NCBI GenBank assembly: GCA_958352145.1 | Contig: CATWNM010000005.1 | Location: 11,434-75,433 of the forward strand | Origin: an uncultured Eubacteriales bacterium | Lineage (GTDB): Bacteria; Bacillota; Clostridia; Oscillospirales; CAG-272 | Direction: 5' to 3' | DNA: 64,000 nt | Shown here: one piece after another, positions 4,617 to 30,910 of the stretch | How the letters are laid out: each line of letters starts with the position of its first letter | Position numbering within the stretch: the stretch's first letter is position 1 | Program-made: the position numbers and the translations under genes | The notes under the pieces: generated by a model | What the model was told of the DNA's origin: nothing | Databases searched by the model: none | What the model saw: only the letters and a program-made list of their open reading frames with translations

Positions 4617-5315
4617 TTAAAAATTCCTTTGTGCAGTGCCGTTTTGGATTATAAGAGCCCGAACGGCCGGTTCAATATGTGACCAAAATACTTCGGCAAT
4701 TTGTTTCATGCCAAGATCGCTCGGATGATTGAATTGTCCGTGCGTTTCTTTACGGGTGACGATATCGCCGAGGCGCATAAAGGAATCCCCGTATTTTGCT
4801 GCGACCGCCAGCTTTTCGGCATCCAGCTTCGGACGGATGTAAAAGCCCTGTGAATGGAAGACGGCGGCATGATTGCCGGCGTTCAAAAAATTTCTCATTT
4901 CCTCATATGCCCTGCCGAAAGTTTTTGGCGGATTCGGATCGGTATCGTAGCTTTTGGGTACGTTAGCGCCGAAAAACATAATAAGAATGTCTGCCTGAAA
5001 TTCGGCCGCTTTGCGGTAATTCTGCTCGGGAGAAGCAGTGAACAAATTGGCTTCATAACTGCCTACCTGCGCGATGCAGTAGGCTGCATTGGCGTCGTAT
5101 TTCCATATTTTTTGCATCAAAAGATGGACATAATCCTTTTCGGGGGCAGAGGCTGCCATACCGCAGTCGTTGTGCCAGCCGATTTGCGGTTTGGGCGAAT
5201 GCTTGGTTATGGAGTTGCCGGCAAACAAAATCCGAATGCCGCTGTTTTCATGCGGAAAGACCAGCTGCTTTACTTGATTTACGGCGGGTACGATGTTTTC
5301 CTGCAAATTTTTCAT
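4617..5315 (-). CDS. SGNH/GDSL family hydrolase
   Basis: Block I ILFAGNSIT plus a C-terminal ...HPSDLG (block V-like). Confidence 0.7.
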   Translation of the reverse strand: MKNLQENIVPAVNQVKQLVFPHENSGIRILFAGNSITKHSPKPQIGWHNDCGMAASAPEKDYVHLLMQKIWKYDANAAYCIAQVGSYEANLFTASPEQNYRKAAEFQADILIMFFGANVPKSYDTDPNPPKTFGRAYEEMRNFLNAGNHAAVFHSQGFYIRPKLDAEKLAVAAKYGDSFMRLGDIVTRKETHGQFNHPSDLGMKQIAEVFWSHIEPAVRALIIQNGTAQRNF

Positions 5316-6634
5316 AAAAATTTCTCCGATTCTGTATTTATATATAACTTTCCAAACATGTAGCCGCTACGGCATTCCAAAAGCAGCACGGGCAAAAGTT
5401 TGCCGCGCAAGTCGGCCTTTTCATATACGCGCACTTCCATAAATGCGGCGGTGTGCCCGCTCCAGAAACCGTTGGTCATTTGTTCAAACAGCACTTGTTG
5501 TACCGGTTGTTTAGCCAATTCCATTTGCAAGCAGTTTTGACCGGCTGCCAGGCAGCATGCGATTAAGCGTTCGGAGCGCGCGTGCTTGAGCGCTTCGGGG
5601 ATTTGGTCGGGAAAGAGAGCGGCCGGCGTGCCCGATCTTTTTGAGTATTTAAATATGTGCGCTGACAGGAGATGCGCAGCTTCGGCGAAAGCCAATGTTT
5701 CCTCAAAATCCATCTCCGTTTCGCCGGGAAAGCCAACGATGAAATCGGCGGTTAACTGAACGCCGGGAATGGCGGCACGGAGGTTTTGAATCGCCTGCAT
5801 CGCCGTTTGAGCGGTGTATTTCCGGCGCATGGCGGCAAGCGTCTTGGAGCATCCGCTTTGCAGGGACAGATGAAAGTGCGGCGCCAGTTTTTTCAGGCCG
5901 GAAATTTGCCGGATAAATGCCGGGCGAAAGAGCGTAGGCTCCAGTGAGCCAAGACGAATACGAGCTAAACTCTCAATATTATCGCATAAATAAAGCAGAT
6001 CGCCGAGCTTTTCACCGGTGTCTGCGCCAAAAGACGCAGTTTCGATGCCTGTCAGAACAATTTCGCGTACGCCGCCTGCAGCGAGTCCCCGAATTTCTTC
6101 TAGCGCGTCCGAGATTCGCTTTGAGCGCACAGGGCCGCGTGCCGCGGGAATGGCGCAGTATGCGCAGTGGTTTTCGCATCCATCCTCGATTTTGACATAA
6201 GCGCGCGTACGCGGTGCGCGTTCAATTTTCATGGTCTCAAAGGGCGCGCCGTCAAGGGTGCGCACTTCGATCTTTGGAATTTGTTTTCCCTCGAGCAGTT
6301 CGACCGCGCGCTGGACGACGCTCAATTTATCACGCGTGCCGCAGATATAGTCCACGTTTTCAATTGCGGATAATTGTTCCGGCGCGGTTTGCGCATAGCA
6401 GCCGCAAATTAAAATTTTGGCATTCGGCGCACGGCTCGCGAGCCGTCGGATCAGCTGCCTGCATTTTCGATCGCTTTCTGCCGTAACGGTGCAGGTATTA
6501 ACAATACAGACGTCGCATTCTTTGTCGCAGGATGCAGCGGAGAATCCGCGCCGCAGCGCTTCTTCCAGTATGGCTTCGCTTTCGTACTGACTGACTTTGC
6601 ATCCGAGCGTATATACGCCGATTTTATGCTGCAT
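5312..6634 (-). CDS. mtaB: tRNA t6A37 methylthiotransferase MtaB (radical SAM)
   Basis: N-terminal YTLGCKVSQYESE, radical SAM CxxxCxxC (CENHCAYCAIP) and a C-terminal TRAM-like region. GGAGGAGGTG lies upstream of the ATG at 6634. The 63-codon upstream extension is rejected. Confidence 0.9.
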   Translation of the reverse strand: MQHKIGVYTLGCKVSQYESEAILEEALRRGFSAASCDKECDVCIVNTCTVTAESDRKCRQLIRRLASRAPNAKILICGCYAQTAPEQLSAIENVDYICGTRDKLSVVQRAVELLEGKQIPKIEVRTLDGAPFETMKIERAPRTRAYVKIEDGCENHCAYCAIPAARGPVRSKRISDALEEIRGLAAGGVREIVLTGIETASFGADTGEKLGDLLYLCDNIESLARIRLGSLEPTLFRPAFIRQISGLKKLAPHFHLSLQSGCSKTLAAMRRKYTAQTAMQAIQNLRAAIPGVQLTADFIVGFPGETEMDFEETLAFAEAAHLLSAHIFKYSKRSGTPAALFPDQIPEALKHARSERLIACCLAAGQNCLQMELAKQPVQQVLFEQMTNGFWSGHTAAFMEVRVYEKADLRGKLLPVLLLECRSGYMFGKLYINTESEKFL

Positions 6635-24355: not shown

Positions 24356-24898
24356 TTAATCTCCGGATGCCTGGTTTTTTTCTTCCTCATCGGGAACCCA
24401 TGCCCGGCTAAAGCCGATGTCCTTGAAAAGCGCTGCGAGTCCGGTGATCTGCTTTAGCCGCAGAATTTCGTCCTTGTCCATGCCCAGATGTTTTGAAATC
24501 CATGCGTCGCTTCTGCCCAGTTCGTGCAGTTCTTTGACAATATTGCTCATGAGTTCGACGTCGTGCGAGCCGCGGGCACGGTTGTGGCGTATGGTGCTGG
24601 CCATACGCTGATCCATCGGCTTGTCGATCACCGAAACGGGGAGCAGTCCGCGTTCGCGCTGATAGATGTCGTCGTGTTCCAGCATGACCCGGTACCGGTG
24701 AAAGCCGTCCACAATGACGTAGATGTCTTCTTTTGAACTGTAATAGCACACGATTGGCATCGTATATCCGTCACTTTTTATGCTGTCGTATAGGAGCTTC
24801 ATTTCCGGCGGGGCGACCGCGTTCGGATTGTATGTATTTGGAACGATTTTTTCGATGGGCACGGCCCGTACTGCATAAACAGGGCTGCGGTATTCCAT
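24356..24898 (-). CDS. ParB/Sulfiredoxin-domain protein, IbrB-like (DndB-analogous)
   Basis: ParB-box-like IVPNTYNPN ... VIVDGFHRYRV ... IRHNRARGSH. The ATG at 24898 directly abuts the stop (24899-24901) of the upstream gene. Confidence 0.75.
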   Translation of the reverse strand: MEYRSPVYAVRAVPIEKIVPNTYNPNAVAPPEMKLLYDSIKSDGYTMPIVCYYSSKEDIYVIVDGFHRYRVMLEHDDIYQRERGLLPVSVIDKPMDQRMASTIRHNRARGSHDVELMSNIVKELHELGRSDAWISKHLGMDKDEILRLKQITGLAALFKDIGFSRAWVPDEEEKNQASGD

Positions 24899-26260
24899 TT
24901 ACAGATCCTCCAGGCTTTTGTATTTTTGTTTGATGCGTGCAATCCTTTCCCGCTGCTTCTTGCTTTCTCCAAATCCCATCGTTTTGCAGTTATGGTCATT
25001 TTTCAGAATGCAAAGACACATGCGTTTCCAACTGGGAATATCTTTTGTGGTAAAAATATCGTCTGTATCGTCGGGGATTTTGCCGACGAATATAATCCGC
25101 GACTTCTTATCCAGTGTGTAATTGGATACGCCGTTGCGCCTGATGTTATATCCTTTTGCTGTCAGTTCCGCGATGGTATCTTCGGAAAGGCCGCCGCCGG
25201 TCTCGCGCCAGAATTGAATGGAAGCTCGGAATTTTTCGGCGTAGCGCATGCCAAGTCGTTTTGGAAGCGTTTTTAAAAGGAACTCGGTGTAGGACTGCCA
25301 GGTATGGCCCTCCGGCAAACGAATGCTTCTGTATCCTACTGCGGACGTTCGCCCATATATGGCGGCGAAGTTTGCGCCCTGTACACGCCCAAGCAGCCGC
25401 ACCCAGGTTTGCGGTTCCAGCACACGGTATAAGTTCAGACTTTCCCGTGCATAATCGTTGAACGGAGAGGCTACGCGCATTTGGTCGGGGGTCAGGCCGG
25501 CTTTGTAGTACAGGTCGTACAGCGGATTATATGCATATCCAAATTTGCAGTTTGCCGCCCATACGTCCGAAATCGTCCAGTCGTATAGCGGCGAGGCGCA
25601 CCAGACATCTTTAAAGGTTTTTGAAATCCAGCAGCAGCCTTTGTATCCGTATTTTTTATTCACAATGCTGTTGTACCGCTGCAAAGATTCTGTGGCGCGC
25701 GTACCGAGCAGGCAGATCGTTTTTCCACCGCCGTGGATTTCCCGGTACCAGCGGCCAAATTGCTTGGCCAGATTTTCCTGATGCATTTTATATTTATAAT
25801 AGTAAAACGGATTGTTTTGCAGCCGAAGCACATAGGGCTTGTTCGGAATTTCGCGTATCCAAAGCGCTTCTTTTTGGTCGTCCCAGGGGTACCAGTACAT
25901 TTCATAGCTGCCCAGCGCAGTGCGTGTCGCCATCGGCAGGCATACCCAATAAGGCTCGACCATATCGAGATGTTTTTCAAAGGTTTCCTCGACATACTTC
26001 GTTGTCATGGAGTACTGCGCTTCAAAGTCCTGATGAAAGAGGCCGATTTTGCGGGCGATGTGCCTTTGCTTGATGTAGTCTAAAACCAGATTCAGCAACA
26101 GTCCGCTGTCCTTGCCGCCGCTGAACGATACATAGATGTTCTCAAATTCGCTGAAAATAAAATTGAGCCTGCCTTGCAGGGCTTCATACACGTCGCATTC
26201 CAGGTATCGTTTGATCATTTTGTAAGTCCGCGGGTTGGTTGATATCGCTTTGAAATGCAT
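24899..26260 (-). CDS. PP-loop ATP-pyrophosphatase / PAPS-reductase-like protein with a long C-terminal extension, IbrA-like (DndC-analogous)
   Basis: PP-loop SFSGGKDSG near the N-terminus. About 450 aa. The C-terminal half resembles the DUF3440-type extension of IbrA homologues as recalled from memory; not searched. Confidence 0.75.
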   Translation of the reverse strand: MHFKAISTNPRTYKMIKRYLECDVYEALQGRLNFIFSEFENIYVSFSGGKDSGLLLNLVLDYIKQRHIARKIGLFHQDFEAQYSMTTKYVEETFEKHLDMVEPYWVCLPMATRTALGSYEMYWYPWDDQKEALWIREIPNKPYVLRLQNNPFYYYKYKMHQENLAKQFGRWYREIHGGGKTICLLGTRATESLQRYNSIVNKKYGYKGCCWISKTFKDVWCASPLYDWTISDVWAANCKFGYAYNPLYDLYYKAGLTPDQMRVASPFNDYARESLNLYRVLEPQTWVRLLGRVQGANFAAIYGRTSAVGYRSIRLPEGHTWQSYTEFLLKTLPKRLGMRYAEKFRASIQFWRETGGGLSEDTIAELTAKGYNIRRNGVSNYTLDKKSRIIFVGKIPDDTDDIFTTKDIPSWKRMCLCILKNDHNCKTMGFGESKKQRERIARIKQKYKSLEDL

Positions 26261-26351
26261 GTTTTATCTGCGCGTAGGGCATATGGAGCGATATTCTGCA
26301 TATTGAGGCGTGCAGCACCGACCCGATTATCCTTGTACTGTTACTTTTTTT

Positions 26352-26380
26352 ATTATATAGCAAGATATGGGGCGTTTCAA
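26352..26380 (-). promoter_or_regulatory. Candidate sigma-A promoter for the ibrA/ibrB-like pair
   Basis: Minus strand: TTGAAA (26380-26375), 17-bp spacer, TATAAT (26357-26352). Confidence 0.5.
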
Positions 26381-26412
26381 GGAAAATTTACATAAACATG
26401 TAAATTTTTCCA
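26381..26412. promoter_or_regulatory. Palindromic candidate operator abutting the -35 of the ibrA-like promoter
   Basis: AAATTTACAT-AAAC-ATGTAAATTT (26384-26407): perfect 10-bp arms with a 4-bp spacer. Confidence 0.45.
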
Positions 26413-26485
26413 ATTGCATACAACGTTCGGCTCTATTTTAATTGTATTTTCAAGTCAATAAAAATTAGAAAATCCGCCTGCGTGG

Positions 26486-26889
26486 TTGTGCCGCGTAGGG
26501 GGATTTATTGAAATGGAAGATGTACGCTATGGCATAAGATCGCACGCTTATTATGCAAAAGCAGTTGTTTGGGGACAGCAGAACGGAATAATCAAAGGCT
26601 ATTCCGAAACAGAATTTGTACCCGACCAAAGCATCACAAGAGAACAGATTGCGGCGATTATGTACCGCTACGCTAAGTAAAAAGATGTTGCTCCGACAGA
26701 TAATTGGGCAATTAAACTTGATTACACTGACTTTGCGGATATTTCCGATTATGCAGTGGAATCAGTTATGTACTGCAAGTTGAAAGGCATTATGCAGGGC
26801 AAGGATAATAAGAACTTTGCACCGCAGGATAATGCTACAAGAGCCGAAACGGCGGCAATACTTCAAAAATTTATTGAAGCTGACAAGTA
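26486..26889 (+). pseudogene. Remnant of the C-terminus of an SLH-domain cell-surface protein. It has no N-terminal part and carries an in-frame stop.
   Basis: Two SLH-like modules (...GIIKGYSETEFVPDQSITREQIAAIMYRY and FADISDYAVESVMYCKLKGIMQGKDNKNFAPQDNATRAETAAIL) are separated by TAA at 26678-26680. There is no signal peptide or plausible start. Confidence 0.7.
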
Positions 26890-26905
26890 GATAGCATAAT
26901 AACTT

Positions 26906-26942
26906 TCAAGGGCATACCGCTTTTTGTTGGCGGTATGCCCTT
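26906..26942 (+). terminator. Hairpin terminator after the SLH remnant
   Basis: CAAGGGCATACCGC / GCGGTATGCCCTTG stem. Confidence 0.65.
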
Positions 26943-27022
26943 GAACTATATTTACAGGAATTTTCATTCAAGGTGTATTTGTGGTTATAATAAATATAAA
27001 GACCTTGAAAGGAAGTTTAACT

Positions 27023-27862
27023 TTGAAAATTATTACTAATGAAATCATAAATCGATTTAAACTATATCTGTACGAGGACGAAAAGAGTGACAGCACCATA
27101 GAGAAATATATGCGTGATATTCGTTTCTTCCGTGAGTGGCTCGGCGGTAAAGGAGTTGACAAATCCGTAGTGGTTGAATATAAAAAGGAACTTTGTGAAA
27201 AGTACGCACCAAAGAGTGTAAATTCGATTTTATCATCGCTAAATGCTTTATTTATATATATGAATTGGTATGATTTGAAAGTAAAAACTCTAAAAATACA
27301 ACGCCGGATATTTGCCGATAAAGAAAAAGAACTGTCAAAAGCCGAATATGAAAGGCTATTGACAGCAGCTAAAAACAAAAAGAATGAAAGATTATATTAT
27401 CTTATGCAGACTATAGGCAGTACGGGCTTGAGAATTTCGGAATTAAAATATGTAACTTGTGAAGCCGTAAACGCAGGGCAAGCTGTTATAAACTGTAAAG
27501 GCAAGATACGGCAAGTGTTTCTGCCAAAACAACTATGTAAAATGTTGAAAGCTTATATCAAGCAACAAAATATAGAAAGTGGTTCGGTGTTCATAACAAG
27601 AAGCGGCAAACCTCTTGACCGCAGCACTGTATGGAAGATGTTGAAAAACTTATGCGAAAGGGCCAATGTTGCAAAGAGCAAAGTATTTCCCCATAATTTT
27701 CGTCATCTTTTCGCAAAAACATTTTACTCTCTGAAAAAGGATATCGTAAGACTTGCCGACATCTTGGGACATTCCAGCATCGAAACTACAAGGGTTTATA
27801 CTATCGAAAGCGGAGAAATCCATAAAATGCAACTGCAAAAGCTCGGTTTACTGCGGTGTTAG
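27023..27862 (+). CDS. Tyrosine-type site-specific recombinase (XerC/D-phage integrase family)
   Basis: Core-binding N-domain, R (GLRISEL), HxxR (HNFRHLFA) and the catalytic Tyr region LGHSSIETTRVYT. AAGGAAG lies upstream of the TTG at 27023; an alternative start is 26981. GC content is markedly lower than the surroundings. Confidence 0.9.
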   Translation: MKIITNEIINRFKLYLYEDEKSDSTIEKYMRDIRFFREWLGGKGVDKSVVVEYKKELCEKYAPKSVNSILSSLNALFIYMNWYDLKVKTLKIQRRIFADKEKELSKAEYERLLTAAKNKKNERLYYLMQTIGSTGLRISELKYVTCEAVNAGQAVINCKGKIRQVFLPKQLCKMLKAYIKQQNIESGSVFITRSGKPLDRSTVWKMLKNLCERANVAKSKVFPHNFRHLFAKTFYSLKKDIVRLADILGHSSIETTRVYTIESGEIHKMQLQKLGLLRC

Positions 27863-27972
27863 AAAAAATTTTGAAATAATTTTACGAATCCCCGTGACAA
27901 ATATTGTATGAAAGCGGGAATATACTACGGCAGATCATTCAGAAATTGGGGCTTTGCATGAGAATATAAAAA

Positions 27973-27996
27973 ACAACATAATTTGCATTATGTTGT
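27973..27996. repeat. Left lox-like site (IR-L): ACAACATAAT-TTGC-ATTATGTTGT
   Basis: Perfect 10-bp palindromic arms around an asymmetric 4-bp core. It is the exact reverse complement of 28202-28225. Confidence 0.9.
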
Positions 27997-28031
27997 TAAT
28001 GCTAAACTGGCTCTTACATAACTATTCCAAT

Positions 28032-28059
28032 TTTATACTATTCAACTCCGATTTGTCAA
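28032..28059 (-). promoter_or_regulatory. Strong sigma-A-like promoter inside the invertible segment, currently pointing leftward (away from the surface protein gene)
   Basis: Minus strand: TTGACA (28059-28054), 16-bp spacer, TATAAA (28037-28032). Confidence 0.55.
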
Positions 28060-28084
28060 CGGGTACTTGAATTTTCATCATTAT

Positions 28085-28143
28085 AGACATAAAAACCGGA
28101 CCAATGAGAACAACGGTTGTTCATTGGTCTGGTTTTTATGTCT
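28085..28143 (+). terminator. Long imperfect hairpin inside the invertible segment; likely terminator for recombinase read-through
   Basis: AGACATAAAAACCGGACCAATGAGAACAAC / GTTGTTCATTGGTCTGGTTTTTATGTCT followed by TTATT. Confidence 0.5.
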
Positions 28144-28201
28144 TTATTCCTAAAATACTTACATTTTCTGCGGTCAATATTCAGAATTTCTTTTGGGAAG
28201 T

Positions 28202-28225
28202 ACAACATAATGCAAATTATGTTGT
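28202..28225. repeat. Right lox-like site (IR-R): ACAACATAAT-GCAA-ATTATGTTGT
   Basis: 24/24 match to the reverse complement of IR-L; the core is inverted (GCAA versus TTGC). Confidence 0.9.
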
Positions 28226-28373
28226 GAGAAAGGGGTGCAGAAAATGAAAGATTGGTTTGAGCCGTATGAGATGCGGCTCTATTTCAGATTTAAATTCAAC
28301 AAAGTCTAACCAGTACAAACGTATCTTTGGCGGACAATTTTAGCCTGTTGACATTTTTAGGAGGTCATTTAAA

Positions 28374-28556
28374 ATGCATAAATTCATAAAGACGATAGCC
28401 GCGCTGCTGTCTTTAATAACGCTTGCGTCCGTTTTGCCGTTTTATATTTTTGCCGCTTCGAATAGTACGGTCGTTTTGCATCCGTCTATCGCGACGCCTA
28501 CGGGCGTTTTAGTAGAAGTGGGCGGCAAGATCAATGGATATACGATTACAAAATAA
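28374..28556 (+). CDS. N-terminal fragment (signal peptide region) of the SLH surface protein, separated from the body by a frameshift
   Basis: AGGAGG lies 8 nt upstream of the ATG. Signal peptide MHKFIKTIAALLSLITLASVLPFYIFA. Stop at 28554-28556, immediately after an A4 run. Confidence 0.65.
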   Translation: MHKFIKTIAALLSLITLASVLPFYIFAASNSTVVLHPSIATPTGVLVEVGGKINGYTITK

Positions 28557-28579
28557 GCGGCTATGACATTACGGTCGAT

Positions 28580-30910
28580 TTGGGAAAGTATAATGTCAAT
28601 AACAATTCCTTTCGATTGCCCTATGCAAACACTTTGTGGAGCGGCGTCGGCAGCGTAGAGTATATCAGTTGGGCGGGAAGCGGTTCGAATAAAAGAAGCG
28701 AGGGCGCGTCCGCGCTTTTGGCAAATGGAAAAAACACCGCGTATTATTATTTTAAAGCGGATCCTACGTATACATATACTTTGAATTATAATGCGAACGG
28801 CGGCAGCGGCGCTCCGGCTGATCAATCTGTAAGTACTGCGGACAGCAGCGGTGTATTTACCATCAGCAGCGAGAAGCCGTCAAGACAGGACTATGCGTTT
28901 TTGGGCTGGAGCACCGATAAAAATGCAGATTTGCCGGAGTATGTGTCCGGCGAGGCTATCCGTATTGGCCATGATCTCACAATTTATGCTGTTTGGCAGA
29001 AAATAACGCCTGAAACAAAGACAATTACCTTGACTTACCATGATAATTTCGGTGACAGCGATCACACGGCTACCGAAAGTAAAATAAGTACGCTGAACGA
29101 ATCAAAATGGTCTCCTGTTATTTTTTCTTTGATGGATTATACGGAGATCGACAGTTTTTCCATACCAAGAGACCGGCGCTTTATCGGCTGGAGTGAAACG
29201 AGAGATGGCGTAATTATCAGCGATTCGCTTTATGCTGTTTCAGAAGATTCGGATGTATACGCCATTTGGGAGGATGTGGAAACTTACACCGTGACGTATA
29301 CGGACGGCACAGGCGGGGAAGAGGTTTTTGCGGATCAGATCACGAGGGAACTGCTTGCAGGCGATGAAACGCCCAAATTTGACGGAACACCGGTACGAAA
29401 AGGATATGTGTTTGCCGGATGGACGCCCGAAGTTGCCGAAAAGGTGACCGGCACGGCGGTGTATACCGCACAGTGGAAAGAAGACCGAAACGGGAACGGT
29501 CAAGCGGACGATGAGGAAGAAACTTACACCGTGACGTATACGGACGGCACAGGCGGGGAAGAGGTTTTTGCGGATCAGATCGCGAAAGGGCTGCTTGCAG
29601 GAGATGAAACACCCAAATTTGCTGGAACACCAAACCGCGACGGGTATGAATTCAAGGGATGGACGCCGGCGATAGCGGAAACGGTAACAGAGGACGCAAC
29701 GTATACGGCGGTTTGGGAAGCCGAAGAGAAAGAATACCGGAAAAAGATCGTATTTAAAGTAGTAAACGGAACATGGGACGGTTATGACAGCGCGGACAAG
29801 GTGCTCTGGCTGACTTTAAAGGATGGAGACGGGAATAACAGTGAGGACGGTACGGCGGCAGCGGAGATTCCGACCGGAATGCAGGCAAACAGCGGATATA
29901 AAGGCGGCCGCTGGGATCCGGCGCCGGAAAATCCGATTTCAGCGTCGTCGCCTGAAGAATACACGTATAGTTTCAGCAAAAAAACAGGCGGCGGCAGCAG
30001 CACGCTGAAATATACGCTTACGTTTGAAACAAACGGCGGATCAAAAATCAGCAGTATAACGAAATCAAAAAACGCGGTTGTAGAATTGGATGCATATGAA
30101 CCGGTCAAAGCGGAGAACGTGTTTGAGGGCTGGTATGCGGATAAAGCGCTGACAGAAGCCGTGACAAGCGTGCGGATCACGGGGCATATGACCGTATACG
30201 CCAAGTGGTCCGAAATAAACAAAAGACAACCGTCATTACTGACGGATGCGCATGACGCATATATCGTCGGGCGGCAGGACGGTTTGGTTTATCCGGAGGC
30301 CAATATAACAAGAGCGGAAGTCGCGACGATCTTTTTCCGCCTGCTTACCGATGAGGCGCGGAAAGAGAATTATACAAAAGATAACGCATTTCGCGATGTA
30401 GTTACCGGCGATTGGTATAATACGGCCATTTCGACACTTGCCAAACTAAATATTCTCAAGGGCCGGGGTGAAGACCGGTTTGATCCGGATGCGTATATCA
30501 GCAGAGCGGAGTTTGCGGTAATTGCGGCGCGGTTCAGTGATGCGGCGTATGCGGGTGAAGATATATTTGGCGATATAGCCGGGCACTGGGCAGAGGAAGA
30601 GATTAACAGCGCGGCAGAGTTGGGCTGGGTGATCGGAGACAACGGGCTTTTCCGGCCGAATGATTGTATAACGAGAGCGGAAGCGATGGCGCTTGTCAAC
30701 CGAGTGCTCTGCCGGCAGCCGGAAACGGCGGCGGATATTTTAAGGGAAGATATGGTATGCTGGCCGGATAATTCGGATGAGAATGCCTGGTATTATCTGA
30801 TCGTACAGGAGGCTACCAACAGTCATAGCTATGAGATGAAGTCCGACGGCCGGCATGAAAAGTGGGCGCAGTTGAAATCGCCTAGAAACTGGACTGTGCT
30901 GGAAAAATAA
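28580..30910 (+). CDS. Large cell-surface protein body: Listeria-Bacteroides (Flg_new-type) repeats, 80-aa tandem repeats and three C-terminal SLH domains
   Basis: YTLNYNANGGSGAP...FLGWSTD...IYAVW and YTLTFETNGGSKI...FEGWYADKALT...VYAKW repeats. SLH modules ITRAEVATIFFRLL, ISRAEFAVIAARF and ITRAEAMALVNRVL. The frame is open from 28466 and overlaps the 28374 ORF. Confidence 0.85.
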   Translation: MGKYNVNNNSFRLPYANTLWSGVGSVEYISWAGSGSNKRSEGASALLANGKNTAYYYFKADPTYTYTLNYNANGGSGAPADQSVSTADSSGVFTISSEKPSRQDYAFLGWSTDKNADLPEYVSGEAIRIGHDLTIYAVWQKITPETKTITLTYHDNFGDSDHTATESKISTLNESKWSPVIFSLMDYTEIDSFSIPRDRRFIGWSETRDGVIISDSLYAVSEDSDVYAIWEDVETYTVTYTDGTGGEEVFADQITRELLAGDETPKFDGTPVRKGYVFAGWTPEVAEKVTGTAVYTAQWKEDRNGNGQADDEEETYTVTYTDGTGGEEVFADQIAKGLLAGDETPKFAGTPNRDGYEFKGWTPAIAETVTEDATYTAVWEAEEKEYRKKIVFKVVNGTWDGYDSADKVLWLTLKDGDGNNSEDGTAAAEIPTGMQANSGYKGGRWDPAPENPISASSPEEYTYSFSKKTGGGSSTLKYTLTFETNGGSKISSITKSKNAVVELDAYEPVKAENVFEGWYADKALTEAVTSVRITGHMTVYAKWSEINKRQPSLLTDAHDAYIVGRQDGLVYPEANITRAEVATIFFRLLTDEARKENYTKDNAFRDVVTGDWYNTAISTLAKLNILKGRGEDRFDPDAYISRAEFAVIAARFSDAAYAGEDIFGDIAGHWAEEEINSAAELGWVIGDNGLFRPNDCITRAEAMALVNRVLCRQPETAADILREDMVCWPDNSDENAWYYLIVQEATNSHSYEMKSDGRHEKWAQLKSPRNWTVLEK
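29279..29581 (+). repeat. Intragenic direct repeat with a 240-bp period
   Basis: 63 bp at 29279-29341 are identical to 29519-29581. The following roughly 100 bp are similar, encoding ETYTVTYTDGTGGEEVFADQI... Confidence 0.9.

Follow-up and report, generated by a model that had tools for sequence, protein, structure and literature searches.

A candidate invertible promoter with an adjacent Xer-like recombinase gene upstream of an SLH surface-protein gene in an uncultured Eubacteriales bacterium, and the family of modules to which it belongs

Promoters that are flipped by a recombinase encoded beside them are a known kind of bacterial switch, and the locus described here is not a new kind. It lies in a stretch of 64,000 nt (the window) from contig CATWNM010000005.1 of an uncultured Eubacteriales bacterium (assembly GCA_958352145.1) and comprises a tyrosine recombinase gene, a left and a right recombination site in inverted orientation (IR-L and IR-R), the short segment between them with a predicted promoter and a long hairpin, and, beyond IR-R, a gene for a surface protein with SLH domains (the cargo). 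Likewise, the fimS switch of Escherichia coli is a short invertible segment which contains the promoter for a surface-structure gene and turns it ON or OFF by its orientation. The genes for the tyrosine recombinases FimB and FimE are its immediate upstream neighbours and are read in the direction of the switch, which their transcript enters, and the window is alike in this respect. The fimS segment measures 314 bp between 9-bp repeats, is served by two recombinases and needs IHF and Lrp, whereas the window locus has one recombinase, 24-nt palindromic sites resembling dif and a terminator, predicted to act in both directions, built into the segment.

Among Gram-positive anaerobes, the RecV switches of Clostridioides difficile (cwpV, flgB) are comparable in that a tyrosine recombinase inverts segments of ~150-200 bp upstream of surface genes and in that a terminator is involved in the OFF state, as we propose for the window. 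RecV is encoded away from its several targets, its repeats are about 21 bp long and not dif-like, and the cwpV promoter lies outside the switch, the OFF state being brought about by a terminator formed in the leader RNA. In contrast, switches of the window type each have their own adjacent recombinase and an internal promoter. Streptococcal PsrA (CreX, IvrR) is, as in the window, a Firmicutes tyrosine invertase adjoining its inverted repeats; the relationship is distant, however, and PsrA inverts coding segments of hsdS (type I shufflons) and thereby changes methylation specificity, while the segment in the window carries a promoter.

A described group of similar geometry is inverton group 139 of a 2025 hCom2 survey. 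The survey gives this group 33 members (32 from Clostridia; 17 strains), links them to an adjacent tyrosine 'invertase group 35' within 5 kb of nearly every inverton, and demonstrates flipping at the level of reads in a defined gut community (PMC11892184). The coordinates given there for Clostridium sp. D5 amount to 26-bp repeats with 205 bp between them (PMC11892184), which is exactly the spacing in the window. By its geometry, the window family may well be group 139. As presented there, the group consists of invertons of defined cultured strains, without the anatomy reported below, whereas the species of the window is known from metagenome assemblies.

We consider it very likely that the window locus is a self-contained phase-variation cassette, made up of a Xer-like recombinase, inverted dif-like sites, an outward promoter and a two-way terminator in the segment. 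An initial annotation of the locus had read it as a recombinase-driven invertible promoter which is currently OFF, and this reading is supported by the conserved layout of related modules, by the arrangement of the site centres in 40 of 40 pairs and by inversion in homologous loci. New in the present study are the picture of the family, the dif-like sites with private centres, and corrections regarding a frameshift in the cargo gene, the predicted two-way terminator and the unflipped state in the species. Phase-variable surface proteins decide the encounters of gut bacteria with phages, antibodies and mucus, and mechanistic knowledge of them comes almost entirely from Bacteroides, E. coli and C. 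difficile; the family treated here, a large one that has hardly been described so far, lives in Clostridia which are known mostly from metagenome assemblies and are at present beyond genetics.

Recombinase, sites and segment of the locus

The recombinase gene (27023-27862, plus strand, TTG start) encodes a protein of 279 aa, the presumed invertase. It is situated where the initial annotation had placed it, is intact in the window and ends 110 bp before IR-L, and the locus thus has the nearby recombinase by which invertons are recognized. The product matches the Pfam family Phage_integrase (PF00589; E-value 1.4e-28, 100 bits against a cut-off of 27) and has an N-terminal SAM-like domain. When it is aligned to the XerA-like structure 4a8e, the motifs GLRISEL, CKGK, HNFRH, LGHSS and RVYT are in place, and the protein thereby has the catalytic Arg, Lys, His-x-x-Arg, His/Trp and Tyr nucleophile of the tyrosine recombinase superfamily. 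Among the Xer recombinases, which include single-recombinase systems such as XerA, XerH and XerS, its best matches in sequence and structure are XerA and XerD. Both NCBIfam models are, however, missed by a wide margin (XerA 136.8 against 220, XerD 134.8 against 329.6, with XerC at 111.7 against 335), so that equivalog level is not reached. Models of the FimB/FimE type (NF007370, NF007371) score still lower, with 32.2 bits where 221 would be required and 25 where 222 would be, and a gene annotated as 'tyrosine-type DNA invertase PsrA' is 35.7% identical over 89% of the protein. Membership in an integron was considered and rejected, as integrase models reach only 51.8 against 265 and 28 against 435; no search for attC sites was made. 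At least 18 other assemblies encode a protein of 100% identity, and in one, L065, the gene is frameshifted or split.

IR-L (ACAACATAATTTGCATTATGTTGT, 27973-27996) and IR-R (ACAACATAATGCAAATTATGTTGT, 28202-28225) are each 24 nt long and 100% complementary, with 205 nt between them, and IR-R is, as first described, the exact reverse complement of IR-L. The same arms are found in both sites, ACAACATAA and TTATGTTGT, which enclose TTTGCA in IR-L and TGCAAA in IR-R. Across the 64-kb window, the pattern ACAACATAAT-N4-ATTATGTTGT with up to three mismatches matched these two sites only, and none of 100 shuffled sequences contained a match. The two sites also form the sole perfect inverted repeat of at least 18 nt in the window with arms more than 24 nt apart, the remaining ones being hairpins or imperfect. 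At the locus as assembled, the native junctions read GCATTATGTTGT/TAATGCTAAACTGGC and TTTTGGGAAGT/ACAACATAATGCAAATTATGTTGTGAGAAAG (the slash marks the junction). After a flip, the left junction is predicted to read ...ATTATGTTGT/ACTTCCCAAAAGAAATTC, or in longer form AAAAAACAACATAATTTGCATTATGTTGT/ACTTCCCAAAAGAAATTC, and the right one ...CAGTTTAGCATTA/ACAACATAATGCAAA, which can also be written CAGTTTAGCATTA/ACAACATAATGCAAATTATGTTGTGAGAAAG.

The architecture of the sites had originally been compared to lox and FRT, with inversion predicted from the opposite orientation of the cores. The inverted orientation stands, but the likeness to lox and FRT does not: E. coli dif is GGTGCGCATAA-TGTATA-TTATGTTAAAT (PMC3025954), and the inner arm bases CATAA and TTATGTT are common to dif and the window sites, which likewise consist of two arms ending in CATAA and TTATGT round a 6-bp centre. 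Since the arms share the inner bases and the layout of dif, the strand-exchange region is likely to be these 6 bp (TNNNNA), of which the middle four alone are asymmetric. A dif-like layout is also a better match to a Xer-like recombinase than the former comparison. The use of the sites differs from that of dif, which is one site near the terminus and serves dimer resolution: the window has two inverted sites 205 bp apart, with inversion as the predicted outcome, and genomes with this family hold many modules whose centres differ from one to the next, so that the single site per replicon of a dif system is not what is found. A literature search with the site sequences returned unrelated primers as its sole matches.

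Between the sites, a promoter of the sigma-70 type is predicted on the minus strand (28030-28059), with TTGACA at 28059-28054 followed either by 16 nt and TATAAA or by 18 nt and TAAAAT (11 of 12 consensus matches). In agreement with the initial annotation it points to the left, across IR-L and at the 3' end of the recombinase gene, and away from the surface gene; from its near-perfect match we infer that it is active. The hairpin at 28082-28146 has a folding energy of -36.1 kcal/mol (z = -8.8) when read from the plus strand and of -32.3 kcal/mol (z = -6.7) when read from the minus strand. The position of its core, GACCAATGA...TCATTGGTC, is conserved, and compensatory changes are seen across 20 family members. 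As the hairpin is flanked by an A-run and, at the opposite end, by a T-run, it is best read as an intrinsic terminator or insulator which would work in both directions and shield the cargo gene from read-through out of the recombinase gene. When the segment is inverted in silico, the promoter comes to lie at 28139-28168, facing the surface gene, and the hairpin at 28052-28116, upstream of the promoter; both had been foreseen, and by its sequence the segment thus has an internal promoter that faces a gene in one orientation only, as do invertons.

Beyond IR-R, a leader of 148 nt (28226-28373, plus strand) contains a 21-codon upstream open reading frame (28245-28310) and the ribosome-binding site AGGAGG (28359-28364), in line with the strong site claimed at the outset; no Rfam family was matched in the leader or elsewhere in the whole window. 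The accompanying remark, that no convincing -35/-10 pair is seen past IR-R, needs correction, as TTGACA-16-TAAAAT (11/12) is found on the plus strand at 28348-28375. Its -10 overlaps the ATG at 28374, however, and it is therefore unable to serve the surface reading frame, and any transcript from there would be without the ribosome-binding site; it is probably a chance hit in AT-rich DNA. The weaker plus-strand candidate of the initial annotation, TTACAT-17-CAGAAT at 28159-28187, is present, with 8 of 12 matches and below the reporting level of the promoter scan, and could allow basal expression.

The surface-protein gene itself (28374-30910, plus strand) encodes a signal peptide, four Flg_new repeats (Pfam, 1e-31) and SLH domains (2e-25), but it is not intact in the window. 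The reading frame at 28374 stops after 60 codons and a body of 776 codons continues in another frame (28580-30910). The break is located in the A-run at 28548-28551, which has four A in the window (A4), while assemblies with five (A5) have an intact gene of 845-846 aa. Owing to this 1-bp frameshift, even the ON state would yield no full protein in this strain, and for annotation purposes the surface gene in the window is to be treated as silent and, in this strain, broken.

The locus might accordingly be imagined to work as follows. The recombinase would pair the two sites, and exchange in the centre (T-TTGC-A / T-GCAA-A) would invert the segment. In the OFF state, which is that of the window, the promoter would drive leftward transcription that enters the recombinase gene antisense, from its 3' end, and read-through out of that gene would be halted by the terminator; with read-through blocked and the promoter facing away, the surface gene at 28374 would be left without a promoter. 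In the ON state, the promoter, now at 28139-28168, would transcribe through IR-R and the 148-nt leader into the surface gene, with the terminator upstream of it. More speculatively, transcription antisense to the recombinase gene while the switch is OFF might lower switching, and such silencing, if real, would explain a strong bias toward OFF.

Homologous modules and inversion in the family

For comparison, 47 loci were fetched from species-representative genomes, and loci from metagenome samples were added by exact-protein look-up. Relatives of the recombinase form more than 120 protein clusters at 77-99% identity, with thousands more at E <1e-20; nearly all are from gut and rumen metagenomes, and the few named ones are labelled Clostridia or Oscillospiraceae (metagenome-assembled genomes). 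About 40 modules, with recombinases 48-90% identical to that of the window, keep one layout, namely the recombinase gene followed by the site pair. The sites have ACATAAT-NNNN-ATTATGT as their consensus, in most cases as part of the longer form (A)C(C/A)ACATAAT...ATTATGT(G/T)G(T); they are 190-280 bp apart, and the first of them is located 10-170 bp past the recombinase stop. Their central 4 bp vary from module to module (TTGC, CCGT, ACGA, CAAC, CGAA, GCGG, CGAT, TACA, TTTG, GGAT, TCTC and others), yet are reverse-complementary within the pair in 40 of 40 cases. The initial annotation had noted that, with palindromic arms, the inverted orientation in the window rests on the 4-bp core. A private centre for each copy might keep many switches in one genome independent of each other, in the manner of engineered lox variants.

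The content of the segment is similarly conserved. A near-consensus promoter, TTGACA-17-TATAAT, is found in about 35 of the 40 modules, its -10 some 38 nt from one site and facing out through that site, and most segments have a hairpin at a conserved position with a conserved GACC...GGTC base. In an alignment of 20 members, pairing is seen in 79.6% of the cells and covariation scores 0.367, compared to 0.176 for shuffles (0 of 500 reach it), although the paired fraction is inflated, as the hairpins had been picked by a hairpin search. The double compensatory changes in the middle of the stem are seen in the same 20 members, and the common position and base sequence are unaffected by the selection. 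With its fixed site motif, promoter position and conserved terminator, the switch should be easy to find and to score in metagenomic reads, and as a compact self-contained cassette it is a possible genetic tool in Firmicutes.

Inversion of this type of segment is directly seen between homologous loci. When L036 is compared to L032, L035 and L051, the recombinase DNA is collinear at 88-92% identity, and the segment between the sites is reversed at 77-85%. Similarly, L023 is reversed relative to the window, and L013 is collinear throughout. The closest comparison is provided by a single locus present on 29 sample contigs, which consists of a giant SLH gene, a recombinase gene whose product is 79-80% identical to that of the window, sites with the centre CGTA and a Band_7 gene. 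The promoter faces the recombinase in 28 of the 29 contigs, and L130 alone is reversed, with the promoter before the cargo; relative to L128 its flanks are collinear at 99.0-99.3%, and positions 1104-1361 align in reverse to 1358-1101 at 98.5%. Thus, both orientations occur in homologous loci with the same recombinase family and the same motif. A further suspected flip, in P0061, where the downstream reading frame has 465 or 429 aa depending on the sample, was rejected, its cause being a 1-bp indel. Many of the Band_7-locus contigs (Logan contigs L117, L119, L122 and L125-L130) start 250 nt upstream of the recombinase gene, and L116 and L118 start 273 nt upstream; these starts may reflect a break at a long palindromic terminator like that at 4802-4845 of L032.

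Over all modules, the promoter points toward the recombinase in about 34 of 40 and toward the cargo in six, and the orientation in the window is therefore the common one in the family. A variant arrangement is found in L042, L045 and L047 (at ~4800-6150 in each), where the sites flank the recombinase gene together with an outward promoter, and where this segment is placed between two divergent genes with a shared ribosome-binding site and signal peptide (MKKLMALC...). To judge from this layout, these loci are two-way toggles between paralogous secreted proteins, and since such a toggle works only if the element is a movable promoter, they support the promoter reading. The presence of recombinase and outward promoter inside the segment is reminiscent of hin and the fljBA promoter in Salmonella; Hin and the Gin protein of phage Mu are, however, serine recombinases which need an enhancer and Fis, and in the window the recombinase is encoded outside the segment.

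The cargo past the second site is diverse. It includes TetR regulators followed by giant proteins, surface proteins with SLH, dockerin, FIVAR or beta-helix domains, MmeI-like methyltransferases, a ResIII helicase, a TIR-TPR protein, Band_7/zinc-ribbon proteins, a methyltransferase and a transporter. Cargo of the phage-defence type was observed in L032, L051, L035 and L025 (MmeI-like methyltransferase, TIR-TPR protein, ResIII helicase with HA domains). In a plasmid collection, the motif recurs in records named Monoglobus pectinilyticus (53% identity) and Subdoligranulum variabile (48%), and Pusillibacter faecalis strain MM59 (51%) represents a sister type whose repeats differ and whose cargo is an SLH gene. 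In L020, L026, L031, L048, L075, L077 and L079 the site is repeated in tandem on one side, in two or three copies at distances of 29-41 bp, which could permit alternative inversions. Moreover, L016 and L037 have a full recombinase gene followed by a copy of the C-terminal half and a single site, L015 has a full recombinase followed by a fragment (residues 140-203) in a locus where no site was found, and L038 has a complete second module in tandem, which suggests frequent duplication and deletion among modules.

Orientation in the species and competing explanations

Several observations weigh against an active switch at the window locus, the first being its orientation. All 19 assemblies of the locus, those of the window and 18 others, share one orientation, and none has a flipped copy; the 18 come from human-gut samples and were found via look-ups of the exact recombinase and the exact 60-aa product, most of them with 0-1 differences in 3.85 kb. 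Viral contigs scanned for the flipped junction contained no match, and when the metagenome collection was scanned for the 24-nt site, three loci were retrieved, of which one is the same species in the same orientation, one an unrelated module and one a contig starting at the site. Both orientations have thus not been seen at this very locus, a weak test, as assemblies are consensus sequences that report the majority state and are silent on a minority one. A point in favour of inversion is that seven contigs have their end or start within a site (L026, L027, L029, L030, L033, L043 and L060; six of the 47 from representative genomes and one of the three metagenome hits), as is expected where both orientations coexist in one sample, but these breaks could stem from repeats instead. 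Furthermore, the frameshifted A4 allele of the cargo gene is present in six of the 12 assemblies that were not chosen by allele, the other six having A5, and because of this the switch may be under weak selection in this species. Finally, the functions proposed for promoter and terminator are derived from sequence and conservation.

These points lead to the alternative that the locus is a locked or decaying switch, that is, one which stems from a working invertible promoter, flips at a negligible rate in this species, and leaves the surface gene permanently silent and on its way to a pseudogene. We regard this as unlikely, although it accounts well for the single orientation in 19 of 19 assemblies, for the A4 frameshift in half of the unselected assemblies on a haplotype that is otherwise identical, and for the split recombinase gene in L065. 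On the other hand, the other assemblies have an intact recombinase reading frame with 100% identity, and the sites form a perfect pair; as the strains differ by only 0-1 positions in 3.85 kb, this intactness says little for or against locking. The homologous Band_7 locus does flip and is nevertheless OFF in 28 of 29 assemblies, so that a count of 19 out of 19 would also be expected of an active switch biased to OFF. The one-sided orientation is therefore equally expected of a locked switch and of an active, OFF-biased one, and from the anatomy and the behaviour of the homologues we infer that the window copy still flips. The split between A4 and A5 occurs within a haplotype with otherwise 0-1 differences in 3.85 kb, and the A4 allele is either due to recurrent slippage or a young loss-of-function allele which drifts as long as the gene stays silent.

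In a second lineage of the species (L002, L059; 99.3-99.4% identical), differences cluster at 28810-28862, where the single alignment piece used for the comparison ends at 28866; in L059 the match resumes past the divergent patch, with an insertion of ~160 nt. Several Logan contigs end near 29309, inside repeated ETYTVTYTDGTGGEEVFADQI units.

It is improbable that the segment inverts but has as its main output the control of the recombinase, by antisense transcription or an altered mRNA 3' end, or else read-through into the cargo. Such a role would fit the common orientation, in which the promoter fires antisense into the recombinase gene, the hairpin between recombinase and cargo in both orientations, and the many relatives that have a T-run only on the strand on which it would block read-through from the recombinase in the OFF state. 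Yet the most conserved feature of the segment is an outward near-consensus promoter at a fixed distance, and the promoter between divergent paralogues in L042, L045 and L047 fits a promoter toggle alone; in the window, moreover, the predicted two-way terminator would block read-through in both states. The control of the recombinase and the promoter reading are mutually compatible. There is hardly any probability left for the idea that the sites are not used for inversion at all but serve a Xer-type system or a mobile element in attachment or resolution, as dif-like sites of integration or excision, or a regulator as operator palindromes, since the dif-like sites, the Xer models as top scorers for the recombinase and an apparent mobile-element insertion scar in the recombinase unit, all of which would suit it, are set against inverted copies 205 bp apart in the window and a site pair beside the recombinase in ~40 modules, centres always mutually inverted within a pair, a segment found reversed with breakpoints at the sites, several modules per genome, and Xer cut-offs that are missed widely.

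Flanks of the recombinase gene and traces of a mobile element

The patch containing the recombinase gene and the switch is AT-rich, as had been noted before, with 33-40% GC at 26200-28400 against 45-59% in the flanks. The spacer between the recombinase stop and IR-L (27863-27972, plus strand) begins with a conserved tail of ~55 nt (...GTGACAAATATTGTATGA), which reaches to ~27918, where homology to other recombinase units stops sharply, and includes a decayed recombinase C-terminus at ~27904-27969; by tblastn, residues 262-276 of the recombinase match 27910-27954. The spacer aligns to an equal layout in L074, L013, L017, L021 and L028.

A recombinase with the same tail, P0085, is the last gene of a mobile element in relatives (L074-L083, L093-L102), which also carries a large serine recombinase, ALP_N, a MobA/MobL relaxase, agr-like genes and a sigma/anti-sigma pair. 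The sequence upstream is 99-100% identical among these contigs and the sequence downstream differs; in eight of ten contigs, the latter consists of the last ~17 codons of another recombinase paralogue and the switch of that paralogue. An exchange of cassettes in the style of integrons had been considered for P0085 and was rejected, as longer flanks show a mobile element with a terminal recombinase, inserted at different places. From this arrangement, the element looks as if it inserts into the 3' end of switch recombinase genes, where it would bring its own copy of a recombinase gene, and the 110-bp spacer of the window seems to be the scar of such an insertion. It might thus be speculated, as a tentative extension on which we would not insist, that the cassette is portable and spreads among gut Clostridia in front of varied cargo, with the recombinase 3' end as the target of a mobile element and antisense feedback while the switch is OFF.

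Upstream of the recombinase gene, a possible promoter for it (TTCATT-17-TATAAT, plus strand, 26963-26991) was picked out by eye and is proposed with low confidence, as its -35 has three of six matches and it falls below the scan threshold. Further to the left, the remnant of an SLH gene (26486-26890) retains two SLH repeats with an in-frame stop and has no 5' part; a strong terminator hairpin (26905-26945) closes it. Bordering the AT-rich patch on its left, a gene pair on the minus strand (24356-26260) encodes a DUF3440/PAPS-reductase-like protein and a ParB_N protein, which we take to resemble the IbrA/IbrB pair.

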